DNA of 60,401 bases from Promethearchaeota archaeon Loki_b32 (GTDB lineage: Archaea; Asgardarchaeota; Lokiarchaeia; Sigyniarchaeales; SOKP01), in assembly GCA_005223125.1 (NCBI GenBank), contig NJBH01000024.1:1-60401 (forward strand). The letters are read 5' to 3'. A model generated the notes under the pieces. It was given only the letters and a program-made list of their open reading frames with translations, was not told where the DNA came from and searched no databases. The translations under genes and the position numbers were made by a program. Below, piece after piece: positions 53,521-60,297 of the stretch. Each line of letters starts with the position of its first letter. The stretch's first letter is position 1.

Positions 53521-53694
53521 AAATTTTATTTTATGCTACTAAATTTTATATTAAAAAGTTAATTTAACTGTAGTAATTGTTAAATTTATTAAAATCAGTT
53601 CATGGCTACAAAAAATATTTGCTATTATATTAATTTGGATAGGAAGATATAATTCGAGCTGCTGTAGCAAGAGCTTCTGTATTAGAAAAGTAAA

Positions 53695-54086
53695 ATGGAT
53701 TATCGAGTTGTCCCTCATGCTATATTTACCAACCCCCAAGTTGGAAGCGTTGGTTTTACCGATCTTCAAGCAAATCAGTTACGTTTTGATTGCAGATGTA
53801 ATACGATTCCAATTGGGTTCGTAGCTAAATCCAAAATCCTTAATGATGATAGAGGATTACTAAAAATCGTTATTAATAGAAAGACAGAAGAAATTTTAGG
53901 CATTCACATTTTATCTACTAATGCTGCAAATCTAATTCATGAAGGGGTTATGATTATTAAGAATCATATGACTCTTGATGATGTTATTAATACATTGCAC
54001 GTTTTCCCTACTTTATCAGAAGCTATTAAACTCACAGCACAATCCTTCAAACGAGAATATCTGTAATAAGCTGTTGCATTGAATGA
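53695..54086 (+). pseudogene. merA: Mercuric-reductase-like (MerA) dimerisation-domain remnant, frameshifted near the 3' end
   Basis: VPHAIFTNPQVGSVG...LHVFPTLSEAIK. The C-terminal ISVISCCIE* lies in a shifted frame (one base missing near 54055). Confidence 0.7.
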
Positions 54087-54172: not shown

Positions 54173-54538
54173 TTAAATTAAATAACTTCTCTTTAAATTT
54201 TTATTTATTTCATAAGAGGTGAATTTTCCTTTCTTAACACCATAAATTAATCCTGCTTGATCTAATATTTTTATATGGTGAGAGATAGCAGGTTGAGATA
54301 AATTTAAAATTGCTGTCAGTTCGCAGACACACATTTCTTTTTTTCCTATCAAGTTATAAATTAAAAATCTAACTCTATCTCCTAGTGCTTTAAAATAATT
54401 AACTTTTTCAATAAAATTTTTTTTAGTTAAAATTTCATCTTTATTTCTCTCTAAAGATTCAATGTATTCGAGAATATCCCTATCTATTTTAAAATACTTA
54501 ATTAATTTTTCTATTTCTTCTTTACTCTTTAAATCCAT
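54173..54538 (-). CDS. arsR: ArsR/SmtB regulator
   Basis: FKALGDRVR, EMCVCEL, SQPAISHH. Confidence 0.9.
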   Translation of the reverse strand: MDLKSKEEIEKLIKYFKIDRDILEYIESLERNKDEILTKKNFIEKVNYFKALGDRVRFLIYNLIGKKEMCVCELTAILNLSQPAISHHIKILDQAGLIYGVKKGKFTSYEINKNLKRSYLI

Positions 54539-54696: not shown

Positions 54697-55119
54697 TCAT
54701 ACAAAATTAAATAATTCAAAAAATTTTCTAGAATTCTCTATATACTTCTGAAATTGTTCTTTTACTAATTCATAATGTGTAAAATAGCCTCTTTTTATAC
54801 CTCTTATTATTCTCATACCTTCAAGTATTTTTAAATGATGAGAAATCGAGGATTGTGCTTTATCTAAAATTGCTTCCAATTCACAGACACAATAATCTTT
54901 ATCATTCAACAATTCTACAATTTTAAGGCGAGTTTCATTTCCTAAAACATTGGAAAATTTGCTAAAATTTGTTATACTTTTGTTTTTATTCAATTTAATA
55001 CCAATTTCTCTTAAGGTACTAAAATAAGGTTCTATATCTTTATCTTGAAGATCAAAACATAGTTTTAGACTATTAATTAATTCAGCTTTCCTTTCACTTT
55101 TAATTTGTATCACTTTCAT
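54697..55119 (-). CDS. arsR: ArsR/SmtB regulator
   Basis: LGNETRL, YCVCEL, QSSISHHL. Confidence 0.9.
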   Translation of the reverse strand: MKVIQIKSERKAELINSLKLCFDLQDKDIEPYFSTLREIGIKLNKNKSITNFSKFSNVLGNETRLKIVELLNDKDYCVCELEAILDKAQSSISHHLKILEGMRIIRGIKRGYFTHYELVKEQFQKYIENSRKFFELFNFV

Positions 55120-55285
55120 TGTTTATATTGTCTTCAATATTTATAATGAACAAATCTATAAAAATATATTTAAATTGAATTTGATCAAAGTAAATCGAAT
55201 TATTTAAATTTAAATCATTCTTTTAATTGCATAACATATAACTTAAAAAAATATAACTTCAAATATAAAAAATTGATATAATTAG

Positions 55286-56467
55286 TTGATTATCATGAAT
55301 GATCAAACTGAAACAGAACATGAACATCGTGATTTTGAGAGTAGTCGATATGAACCTGAACATGAAGGTTTAGGAATATTTGATAAATTACTCCCATTAT
55401 GGGTTGTAATTTGTATAGCAATAGGAATTTTATTCTCTCTATATGTACCAGGACTTAGTGAAACTATTGAATCTATTCAGATAGCGGGCATGTCTATTCC
55501 CATAGCGATATGCTTGATTGTAATGATGTATCCGGCAATGCTTAATATAGAGGGTTCGGAGTTGGTGAAGGCTGGAAAAAATCCTAAACCAATAATTTTA
55601 ACGCTCTTTTCAAATTGGGTTGTTGCAACTTTTGTTGGTTTAGCTGTGGCTCTCATTTTTGTACCAGACAACGAACAATTAGTTCTGGCCATAATCTTAC
55701 TCCATGCAAGCCCTTGTACGGCGATGGTTTTGGTTTGGGGATGGTTGGCACGAGGAAATCAAGCACAAAATGTAATTATAACTAGTATAAACACAATAAC
55801 AATAATCATCTTATATGTTCCGGTCGTAATGCTTCTTGTCTTCATTGCTAATATTACATTAACTAAGCCAATTCCTTTAGACACATTAACGTTATTAATT
55901 GCTTTGCTTATTTTTATCGGATTACCATTAATAGCGGGAGTGTTAAGCAAAAGAATTTTGATAAAACGGAGAGGTGAAGAATGGTTTAACAAAAAGTACC
56001 GCCCAGCTGTAGGTAAAGTAGCAATCATAGCATTATTAATGACGTTAATTGTTATTTTTGCCTTAAATGGCCAAGTTCTAATACAATACCCAAATATTCT
56101 GATTAGAGTTTCTATTCCCATTTTAGTTGGGCTTTTAACTGTCCTAATTTATAATGTAATAGTTACTAAATTAGTCAAATTAAGGTATCAAGATGCGGTT
56201 ATTACGATAGTTGTTGGTTCTTCTAGTCATTTCGAAATCGCGATTGCTGTTGCCGTTGCCATGTACGGAATAGGATCATATACCGCTTTGGGAACCACAA
56301 TGGGATTATTTTGGGAGGTCCCTTTAATGCTTTCCGTGGTATATATCTCTAAATATCTTGGAAAACATGGATTCTGGGAAGGTTATCCGTGCATGGTATG
56401 CTATAAGTACCCTTGTATCTGTGGCGAAAAAAAATACCCTACAATAAAAAAAAAAGTTAAAAAATAG
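55286..56467 (+). CDS. acr3: Acr3 arsenite efflux transporter
   Basis: MMYP, NWV, PCTAMVLVW, SSHFEIAIAVA, EVPLML. Confidence 0.93.
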   Translation: MIIMNDQTETEHEHRDFESSRYEPEHEGLGIFDKLLPLWVVICIAIGILFSLYVPGLSETIESIQIAGMSIPIAICLIVMMYPAMLNIEGSELVKAGKNPKPIILTLFSNWVVATFVGLAVALIFVPDNEQLVLAIILLHASPCTAMVLVWGWLARGNQAQNVIITSINTITIIILYVPVVMLLVFIANITLTKPIPLDTLTLLIALLIFIGLPLIAGVLSKRILIKRRGEEWFNKKYRPAVGKVAIIALLMTLIVIFALNGQVLIQYPNILIRVSIPILVGLLTVLIYNVIVTKLVKLRYQDAVITIVVGSSSHFEIAIAVAVAMYGIGSYTALGTTMGLFWEVPLMLSVVYISKYLGKHGFWEGYPCMVCYKYPCICGEKKYPTIKKKVKK

Positions 56468-56525: not shown

Positions 56526-56999
56526 GTGATAGTTTTTAAGAGAATTACTCTCCAAATAAGCATTCCCTTGACTGGGTTATCGGAAGGCAAAAGTTTTACT
56601 ATTGATCTTGATGATGAAGCTAACTTTGTACAAGCATTAGCAAAGGTTGACAAGTATGTATCTGAACATCCAAAAAAATCGATCTTTCCAATATTTAACA
56701 ATTATATCCATAATTATCTGCAACTTGTGTGGAATCCTGAGACGAATGAAATTTATGAAGACATCGGATTATATGCCTATGGCCCCGATGAGCAGGGTAA
56801 CCTCCGAAAATTTATGCCTTTACGGGAAGATATTGAGTTTAACCTATATCCCAATAGCGTAATTGATATACAACCCGATTCTGGATGTTGATGAGAAAAA
56901 GTGAGAAATAGACTAGATATAGGGGAGTTTAAGACGGTTATACGAAAAAAATTTGGTAAAAATAATGAAATTTTTGCACATTATTTCAAAAATAAATAA
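56526..56999 (+). CDS. Ubiquitin/MoaD-like protein; ends at 56891 conventionally, or at 56999 if TGA-TGA (56889-56894) is read as Sec
   Basis: Beta-grasp-like pattern ending LYPNSVIDIQPDSGC. The in-frame extension after TGA-TGA is conserved with the paralog. Confidence 0.6.
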
Positions 57000-57015
57000 G
57001 AATGGGTGATTTTAG

Positions 57016-57480
57016 ATTAAAAAGATAAATTTAACGATATTTGCACCTGACCCGGAGAAAGTCCTTTCAAAGGGTCTAAATTATACTGTTGACATCCAAG
57101 ACAACGGCACATTTATTGATGCCATAAGTAATATTGATAAGCAAGTGATAATTAATCCCGAAAAATCAATTTTCCCATTATTTAAAGGATTAATCAATAG
57201 TTATCTTCAATTGATATGGGATGCAGAGGAAAATAAAATTTATGAAGATTGTGGTGTGGATGCGTATGGACCAAACAAAGAATTCATACCATTAAGGGAA
57301 AATATCGAGTCCAATTTATATCCAAATAGTACTATAACAATAATTGCACATGCTGATTGATGAGCTGATAATATGAAAGAAAGATTAGATTACGGTACTT
57401 TTAGAAGGACAATTATGAAGAAATACGGAAAAGAGAATGAAACTTTTGCACATTATTTTAAATTTAAAAGGGGCAAATAA
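57016..57480 (+). CDS. Paralog of 56526; probable ATT start; ends at 57360, or at 57480 if TGA-TGA (57358-57363) is read as Sec
   Basis: IKKINLTI...FIDAISNIDK...SIFPLF...YLQLIW...IYED...LYPNS aligns over the full length with 56526. Confidence 0.6.
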
Positions 57481-57488
57481 AAGAATGA

Positions 57489-57525
57489 ATGATATCTTTT
57501 AAAGAAATTATAGTAAAAGATTGAC
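57489..57525 (+). promoter_or_regulatory. SECIS-like hairpin (eukaryote/Loki type)
   Basis: AUGA-U-AUCUUUUA-[AAGAAAUUAUAG]-UAAAAGAU-U-GA-C, beginning 8 nt after the TAA at 57478-57480. Confidence 0.6.
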
Positions 57526-57591
57526 AATAGGATTGCGTCCTATTTACCCTTATAGTTTTTAAAACTACTAAAAGTATTAAAATGTTATATT

Positions 57592-59189: not shown

Positions 59190-59666
59190 TTAATTTTCAT
59201 TGAATTTATTAATTCTCGGGCCTTTGTTCTTTAATTCTTGAAGAACAAACTCAATCACTTTAGTTATTCCCTCCTCTTTAATTTCGCTTAATTTAGGTAG
59301 GTTTTTGAAAGTATTAAGATCATTTAAATTCATTCGTTGCTTAGGAATGATATCTTGGACTGAAATAATCAAATCTGGTACAACATCAAGATGTTTATAA
59401 ATTACACTTGCACAAGCTATATTACATCCGTTAATAACAATAATAAAGGAATGCTTGAGATGATTTTTTGTAATTTCAACTAATTGTTCTTTTTCTAATA
59501 ATATGTTTTTAAGAAAAATAGTGGAGCATGTCATTGAACTAATAGAAGCTATTTTACTTTTCTCTGCCAAGTGTATTGCAACCTGTCGTGCTAACTCACC
59601 ATGATGTTCTGAACCTGAGCATGGTATTAAGACAATGTTTTTTTCGTTGATATCTTTTTCACTCAA
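59190..59666 (-). CDS. DGC-type putative zinc-binding protein
   Basis: IPCSG, MTC, INGCNIACA. Confidence 0.8.
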   Translation of the reverse strand: MSEKDINEKNIVLIPCSGSEHHGELARQVAIHLAEKSKIASISSMTCSTIFLKNILLEKEQLVEITKNHLKHSFIIVINGCNIACASVIYKHLDVVPDLIISVQDIIPKQRMNLNDLNTFKNLPKLSEIKEEGITKVIEFVLQELKNKGPRINKFNEN

Positions 59667-59667
59667 A

Positions 59668-59961
59668 TTAAATCAAACCTTTTGCCTTCAATAAGTCTGG
59701 GAGTTTTTTCTTCAAAGCAAATGATGTTGTAACGATTTCTTTTCCATCAATAACTACACTATTACCATGCAAATTCAATCTTCTTGCTTCTTCAGAATCT
59801 AAATTTTTTGTATCGAATGATATATACTTATTATAAGGTGTAATTACCTGAAAAACGAGATTCATAAATCTTTCCCATTGGCAAGCGCATACATTTAAAG
59901 GCACATAAATTTCTACTTTAAGTTTATTTTCTTTTTGAAGTTCACTCTCTTGTTGAACCAT
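59668..59961 (-). CDS. Small thioredoxin-like/ArsD-like protein
   Basis: VEIYVPLNVCAC...VVIDGK. Located in an ArsR operon. Confidence 0.5.
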   Translation of the reverse strand: MVQQESELQKENKLKVEIYVPLNVCACQWERFMNLVFQVITPYNKYISFDTKNLDSEEARRLNLHGNSVVIDGKEIVTTSFALKKKLPDLLKAKGLI

Positions 59962-59976
59962 TTTAACACATCCATT

Positions 59977-60297
59977 TTATATTTTTTGCTGGAGTTCTAC
60001 AATTTTTTTAAATTTTTCATTTCTTTTAATTAAATTATCTACTATTGCCAATAACTTGAAAATTTGGGTATCTTTTACTTTAAACAATTTTTTATTTCCT
60101 TCCCTTCTACTTTCAAGGATATCCGCTTCAGTAAGAGTTTTTAAATGTCTAGATAATGTAGATTGAGTTTTATCAAACACTTTTTCAATGTCGCAAACAC
60201 AAATCTCATTTCCATGCCTTAGAAACTCTAAAAGTTTTAATCTAGTTTCATCGGAGAGAGCTCTTAATAAATCCAATCTTAAATTTTCAAGTTTCAT
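59977..60297 (-). CDS. arsR: ArsR/SmtB regulator
   Basis: RALSDETRL, EICVCDI, QSTLSRHL. Confidence 0.9.
   Translation of the reverse strand: MKLENLRLDLLRALSDETRLKLLEFLRHGNEICVCDIEKVFDKTQSTLSRHLKTLTEADILESRREGNKKLFKVKDTQIFKLLAIVDNLIKRNEKFKKIVELQQKI

Follow-up and report, generated by a model that had tools for sequence, protein, structure and literature searches.

A candidate family of multi-selenocysteine beta-grasp proteins with tandem UGA codons in an arsenic locus of Lokiarchaeia

Five selenoprotein families have been described from Lokiarchaeota (PMC4989117), and seven were found in Asgard archaea via homology to known selenoproteins (PMC11227280). The published Loki element (lokiSECIS) lies in the 3'-UTR and consists of AUGA, a 9-bp stem counting the N-N pair, an A-rich 11-nt loop ending in AG, and GA. 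The lokiSECIS selenoproteins (HdrA-VhuD, VhuU, PrxL and SelD; PMC4989117, PMC11227280) resemble the genes described here, designated the UU family, in their machinery, in the 3'-UTR position of the SECIS, in the use of one SECIS common to tandem genes, and in having terminal UGA stops only near the SECIS, but the UU family is unrelated to them in protein and fold, has two adjacent UGAs, and has a 12-nt loop in the window. Consecutive Sec-Sec has been predicted for the algal PDI_e (GUGUU; PMC7539508), with which one UU subtype has the motif UGUU in common, although PDI_e is eukaryotic with a thioredoxin fold, whereas the UU family is archaeal and beta-grasp. SaoL, SaoB, SaoC and HgcA (bioRxiv 10.1101/2022.07.06.499078) are alike in their vicinal Cys-Sec, in database entries truncated at UGA and in a metal(loid)-linked context, but are bacterial, have other folds and a single Sec per motif, and use a bacterial SECIS; CU motifs mark organometallic selenoproteins (same preprint). 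The sulfur carriers MoaD, ThiS, SAMP1, CysO and Urm1 share the fold and a last strand running into P-x-x-G at the di-glycine position, but the UU family has about 11 % identity to them, no Pfam ThiS match, an internal C-U-U loop and a helical tail of 32-50 aa. Uncharacterised proteins of Bathyarchaeia (UCH02879.1, MEM2920734.1, MFP3985191.1) are homologous along the domain, the loop and the first tail helix, but have a single Cys, a shorter tail and a patchy distribution.

The window, that is the whole stretch of DNA analysed (60,401 nt), is a contig of a 4.13-Mb genome (95.5 % complete). As an earlier note on this DNA had claimed, it contains paired UU genes downstream of acr3, which lies directly upstream on the same strand (Table 1). 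At the recoding site copy 1 reads TGT-TGA-TGA-GAA, followed by 34 open codons to a TAA at 56997-56999, and copy 2 reads GAT-TGA-TGA-GCT, with Ala-Asp before the UGAs and 38 open codons to a TAA at 57478-57480, which bears out the in-frame continuation that the note had seen in both paralogs. Identity between the copies, counted across the stops, is about 48 %, and a tail-anchored alignment places the first UGA of copy 2 opposite the Cys of copy 1, the pairing that had been proposed. A 5.7-kb contig from a different sequencing study covers the locus with seven differences, none of those listed falling on the TGA codons. A second paralog pair is located on another contig of the genome (C24), where each gene has a separate SECIS.

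Table 1 Coordinates of the UU genes, their RNA elements and the arsenic neighbourhood in the window
Feature	Position	Strand	Details
Two divergent ArsR-family regulators	54173-54538, 54697-55119	-	PF01022
Palindromic operator-like motif	55150-55173, 55190-55213	.	TCAAATC-N11-ATTTGA type; between arsR and acr3; first copy scored, second recognised by eye
acr3 arsenite efflux permease	55295..56467	+	TIGR00832 E 1.9e-80, 270.7 bits vs 282.8 cut-off; PF01758
Copy 1, CUU type	56526..56999	+	beta-grasp domain, predicted Gly-Cys-Sec-Sec loop, 34-aa helical tail, TAA end
Tandem TGA-TGA, copy 1	56889-56894	+	TGT (Cys) 56886-56888 just before
Copy 2, HAD-UU type	57016..57480	+	probable ATT start, beta-grasp domain, predicted Sec-Sec, 38-aa tail, TAA end
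Tandem TGA-TGA, copy 2	57358-57363	+	
lokiSECIS	57489..57524	+	AUGA at 57489, U-U pair, 8-bp stem 57494-57501/57514-57521, 12-nt A-rich loop starting AA and ending AG, GA 57523-57524; criteria from PMC4989117
Second conserved hairpin	57526..57544	+	directly 3' of the SECIS
Small thioredoxin-like protein, CAC motif	59668..59961	-	in relatives a member of its family usually lies upstream of the UU gene

For copy 1 the exact start within 56526-56535 is uncertain, because the GTG at 56526 falls inside the SD GGAGGTGA. Copy 2 most likely starts at the ATT at 57016, which follows an in-frame TAG and is preceded by GGGTGA at 6 nt. Most family genes (the window gene at 57016; L017, L020-L022, L025-L028 and others) have a conserved N-terminus that lacks an ATG but has ATT or ATA a few nucleotides after GGTGA or GGAGG, and this points to non-AUG initiation as a routine in the family.

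Each gene would encode one protein of about 155 aa made up of a MoaD/SAMP-like beta-grasp domain, an exposed loop and a helical tail. The loop, at the place of the di-glycine tail, would carry Cys-Sec-Sec in copy 1 and Sec-Sec in copy 2, both UGAs being decoded by tRNA-Sec and EFSec under the direction of the single eukaryote-like SECIS behind copy 2, which would be common to the two cistrons as in Loki HdrA-VhuD. With two or three selenol/thiol groups side by side, the protein would most likely trap As(III), methyl-arsenic or Hg species and either buffer them or hand them to Acr3, or to the ArsM or HgcAB-like methylation proteins often found in the same operon. We assign a probability of roughly 0.85 to this explanation as a whole, a Sec-Sec beta-grasp protein for which metalloid handling is the likeliest function. 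Judged from comparative genomics, its core, a real multi-Sec selenoprotein family with both UGAs decoded and a SECIS common to two cistrons, is very probable.

The earlier note had made its proposal depend on selenocysteine machinery in the genome, and tRNA-Sec, SepSecS (E 5.8e-146), EFSec (E 1.5e-71), PSTK (E 6e-40, under the curated cut-off but clear) and two SelD genes are present. The tRNA-Sec candidate (contig C57) lies just upstream of SepSecS; it was missed by ARAGORN and is under the Rfam cut-off, and its UCA anticodon and T-loop insert match the description of the Loki tRNA-Sec (PMC4989117). The best RF01852 match in the genome (C29) was rejected as tRNA-Sec because its anticodon is UCC. 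The same tRNA-Sec arrangement, with the T-loop insert and directly upstream of SepSecS, was observed at L005:2870-3010 (-), and the two SelD genes are in tandem (contig C16:9975-12157) with an in-frame TGA in each.

The SECIS-like element reported 8 nt past the final TAA, with its AUGA, 8-bp stem, AA-starting loop and GA, was recovered at that place. No further SECIS was found at the window locus, so this lone element behind copy 2 probably serves both genes. The hairpin had also been expected to be conserved, and a loose form of the pattern occurs within about 30 nt of the stop at 62 of 71 family 3' ends, compared with 4 of 586 control windows. Four of the nine genes without it are upstream members of tandems, all ending in TAA or TAG (4/4), one is at a contig edge and one has a variant with a 14-nt loop. 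Pairing in the stem reaches 98.6 %, against about 50 % in slid controls, and 8/8 pairs show compensatory change, in rows that were selected with the SECIS pattern itself, a choice favouring pairing. All 15 terminal TGA stops are at most 26 nt from the AUGA or part of it, and the recoded UGA pair lies 107-144 nt upstream, so that stop placement fits the minimal-distance model of PMC4989117. A genome-wide scan gave 19 lokiSECIS-pattern matches, against 4-6 in Markov controls, and recovered two PrxL, the HdrA and two VhuD genes besides the UU family; an Rfam search found no SECIS.

The second hairpin begins 1-4 nt past the SECIS GA in 58 of 62 family genes, and it also stands behind every other lokiSECIS checked in the genome, namely those of PrxL (C3, C31), HdrA, VhuD (C36, C50) and one on contig C70. 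Possibly it belongs to the lokiSECIS in general; in PMC4989117 the section on the SECIS makes no mention of it.

Of 161 Lokiarchaeia genomes, 138 gave a match to a profile built on the N-terminal domain, with all seven host families (f1 to f7, f1 being that of the window) represented, and 155 of the same 161 genomes have a SepSecS match. Among the 239 other genomes of the phylum only two had weak matches (G158, G309), and these are ordinary GG-ended MoaD/SAMP proteins; a further match outside the class (G203) was not upheld. The earlier note had asked whether the stop is always TGA, and it is never TAA or TAG: two to three TGA stops occur in 150/150 of the family matches listed, and the codon pair is TGATGA in 71/71 distinct genes examined closely, down to about 20-30 % identity. 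The pair is not due to chance, because long ORFs of the window's genome end in TGATGA in 0.2 % of cases (TGA 14 %). Three motif types were distinguished, (G)CUU, DUU and UGUU, among which Cys and UGA swap around the position -8 from a tail Leu. In a gene tree with a midpoint root only, the genes track the host families, with CUU in every deep branch and DUU and UGUU confined to f1.

The tail comprises 32-50 codons that are in frame throughout the 71 genes, and its dN/dS of 0.08 in frame (1.0-1.15 in shifted frames) indicates purifying selection. The earlier note had raised the caveat that the tails could be separate ORFs of about 32-35 aa, given their GTG 56901 and ATG 57373. In this reading TGA-TGA is a double stop and the tail a conserved protein of 32-38 aa starting from one of these codons. 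It has in its favour that GTG occupies that position in 30/71 genes, that gene callers annotate a 35-aa protein in the tail of copy 2, and that the first TGA is the end of nearly all database entries, which are truncated hypothetical proteins save a few code-4 miscalls. However, none of ATG, GTG, TTG, ATT, ATA, ATC and CTG occurs within the first six tail codons of 24/71 genes, the stop before the invariably in-frame tail is never TAA or TAG, the SECIS covaries, and fused Cys homologs occur naturally, as does a Loki-type gene reading TGT-GTC-TCA (Cys-Val-Ser) with no visible SECIS, which is nested inside family f3. Translational coupling via the ATG inside TGATGA was rejected, as that ATG opens only short, non-conserved frames. 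Since the GTG and ATG are not conserved and single-ORF Cys homologs exist, we reject the caveat and give the separate tail protein only the slightest chance.

The Cys homologs, for which the earlier note had suggested a search, were obtained from 1.84 billion representatives as uninterrupted proteins of about 130 aa, assigned to Bathyarchaeia wherever named. A single conserved Cys follows their last strand, and a helix homologous to the Loki tail comes next; hhalign of the two groups gave a probability of 99.6 (E 9.5e-24) across the domain, the loop and the first tail helix, and when the tail was compared by itself with shuffled sequences, 9/13 Bathyarchaeia-type proteins reached p<=0.05. The Cys is at -8 from the conserved tail Leu, the sole position that is UGA in every Loki subtype, a register that is tail-anchored, with a one-residue indel allowing an alternative register with the Cys of CUU. 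Because the Bathyarchaeia and Cys-Val-Ser homologs run through in a single ORF, domain and tail are, on this sequence comparison, one protein. The Bathyarchaeia homologs are patchy (6/251 genomes searched), and SepSecS was not found in the one host tested.

For the beta-grasp scaffold guessed in the earlier note, the modelled domain of copy 2 (pLDDT 91) is a beta-grasp that matches SAMP1 4hro (Z 8.3, rmsd 3.1, 83 aligned) and CysO 4n6e (Z 8.2, rmsd 3.1, 82 aligned), and Foldseek on the same domain agrees weakly. Cobalamin-binding beta domains score almost equally (Z 7.3-8.0), and for this reason the modelled fold does not fix the beta-grasp subfamily. The full-length fold of a database read-through homolog has a pTM of 0.85, a tail helix with pLDDT >90 and a loop at about 64; as it uses entries miscalled with Trp at the UGAs, the modelled loop geometry is not meaningful. 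The fold search with the full-length model aligned residues 1-117 only.

In the UU family Gly-Cys occupies the place of the Gly-Gly of MoaD/SAMP, exactly at the di-glycine position in 53/71 genes. The protein might thus be a selenoprotein acting as a sulfur or selenium carrier or cofactor-assembly scaffold like MoaD, SAMP or CysO, in which case the CUU loop would carry a persulfide or perselenide and the arsenic context would be secondary. This has its basis in the best fold matches being SAMP1 and CysO, in the weakest profile matches being true GG-ended MoaD/SAMP proteins with GG in register with GC, in one Bathyarchaeia homolog that overlaps moeA, and in the Cys-Val-Ser homolog, which precedes a NifU_N gene; deep-branching UU copies adjoin genes resembling AOR and CooS, which we take to count in the same direction. 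Against it, a free C-terminal Gly-Gly is absent from 71/71 genes, which instead have GC-UU, AD-UU or UG-UU and then the tail, and E1-type adenylation would be impossible on a full-length product with no C-terminal GG and an internal loop. Furthermore, no E1/MoeB or synthase partner was found among the annotated neighbour clusters, and solitary copies keep the acr3-type operator described below. We consider a carrier role unlikely.

The exact placing of GC at the di-glycine position would also suit a selenium-dependent switch, in which low selenium yields a functional Gly-Cys-ended ubiquitin-like carrier and selenium yields the long form, and tandem UGAs should lower the efficiency of read-through. 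The HAD-UU and UGUU subtypes would then end without a terminal Cys, however, and the Bathyarchaeia homologs are known only in the long form, which leaves such a switch quite improbable.

In favour of the metalloid function, 24/32 regions of f1 have acr3 at a distance of up to about 8 kb, which are not 24 independent events because f1 genomes are related. Outside f1 the same holds for 1/8 regions (in f4), and another f4 region contains arsR, DUF166 and the Trx-like gene. These 40 wide regions were picked for their long contigs. The usual order is arsR, acr3, an optional ArsM, an HgcA-like methyltransferase fusion, an HgcB-like ferredoxin, the CAC thioredoxin-like gene and the UU gene, longer f1 versions containing ArsM, HgcA-like, HgcB-like, DUF166 and ArsC-like genes, and the link between acr3 and the UU gene persists through inversions. 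The palindrome precedes 26/31 acr3 genes of relatives. An acr3-type operator also stands before two solitary UU genes far from acr3, with scores of 30.2 (0/596 controls) and 13.2 (p 0.013), both from one genome (G037). Position and operator support the metalloid function in f1 but not in most of the other families, and the operator was not found in families f2-f7. Clustered thiols and selenols are the preferred ligands of As(III) and Hg(II). ArsR control of hgcAB, and with it a link to arsenic, is known from Pseudodesulfovibrio (bioRxiv 10.1101/2022.10.17.512643). No Pfam or NCBIfam match to ArsD was obtained, and the model is beta-grasp.

A general selenol redox protein would account for some of the same observations. 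Its Gly-Cys-Sec(-Sec) loop would cycle as a selenenylsulfide or diselenide, in the manner of GCUG at the tail of thioredoxin reductase, with the CAC thioredoxin-like protein as partner and no specificity for metalloids. The family occurs almost throughout the class and is vertically inherited, as fits housekeeping, the Trx-like gene is <=60 nt upstream of the UU gene in about 19 regions, and redox enzymes make up most selenoproteins (PMC13188914). The absence of a thioredoxin fold, the tight arsR-acr3 linkage with the operator kept, and the membership of the Trx-like neighbour itself in the ars cluster argue against it, and we hold this alternative to be rather doubtful.

We give about an even chance to a role within the ArsR regulon as a protein that binds metal(loid)s or acts in metalloid redox. 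Gene contexts are mixed in families f3, f5, f6 and f7 and in Bathyarchaeia, and the arsenic role may therefore be a later specialisation. Among the Bathyarchaeia genes one is beside arsR and a small thioredoxin, one is before moeA and others are among housekeeping genes; one Cys alone cannot chelate As(III). Both points count against the metalloid function.

The earlier note had presented the family as a candidate new one, and it is absent from both the seven-family Asgard list and a 2026 table of 119 prokaryotic selenoprotein families, which contains no such beta-grasp family and no UU motif. Searches showed no homology to SelD, FrhA/VhuU, HdrA, FrhD/VhuD, Prx-like, AhpF-N or DsbA-like proteins (Pfam E<=1, NCBIfam E<=0.01; beta-grasp fold), and Pfam and NCBIfam hold no model for the UU family. 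The locus tags were not found in papers or in the supplements of one proteomics preprint, in a search with thin coverage of subscription journals. The decoding system is known; within this coverage, the protein family and its motif are not. The family would add a near-universal member to a Lokiarchaeial selenoproteome put at five to seven families by two surveys, and would offer a natural test of UGA recoding in Asgard archaea without SBP2 and a case of a ubiquitin-fold carrier turned selenol scaffold. At somewhat less than even odds, it is an ancestral Lokiarchaeial selenoprotein in which the di-glycine end of a ubiquitin-like sulfur carrier became a Cys-Sec-Sec metal(loid) clamp, with adjacent Sec for the first time in prokaryotes, four decodings from one eukaryote-like two-hairpin SECIS without SBP2, and selenium tied to As/Hg handling. 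The main claim may be testable because the gene is present in the cultured Ca. Lokiarchaeum ossiferum (NEF87_003065) and Promethearchaeum syntrophicum (DSAG12_01295) and whole-cell proteomes of Asgard archaea are reported to be deposited in PRIDE. Transcription was not evident in contigs from RNA runs, which covered only short pieces of relatives.

Several minor features were observed. An extra early tail TGA occurs in two copies of the wider sample, one of which carries a TAA within the domain as well and is probably defective. The member at L083:8681-8800 has a third in-frame TGA at tail codon 10 in place of a conserved Gly, with the SECIS intact, and this may be an error, a pseudogene or an extra Sec. 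A fusion of a SAM methyltransferase and an HgcA-like corrinoid protein (about 550 aa) lies inside the acr3 operon at L011:3937-5962 and in L012, L082 and L083, and in several Lokiarchaeia the fused protein is accompanied by an HgcB-like ferredoxin and sometimes by ArsM. In the window, positions 59190-60297 (-) contain ArsR, CAC thioredoxin-like and DGC-domain genes, a cluster that extends in L009 and L075 with ferredoxin, more DGC genes and DUF166, and at 53551-54066 only the C-terminal dimerisation domain (PF02852) of a pyridine-nucleotide disulfide reductase is intact, possibly a remnant. As a point against the overall explanation, the DNA separating acr3 from copy 1 includes a T-rich stretch that might be a terminator; scans for sigma-70 promoters and terminators were at chance level. 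On contig C70, a canonical lokiSECIS (14682, +) lies 11 nt past the TAA of an ORF for a small membrane protein (about 81 aa) containing the motif G-G-U-A-C, a candidate for a further unlisted selenoprotein.
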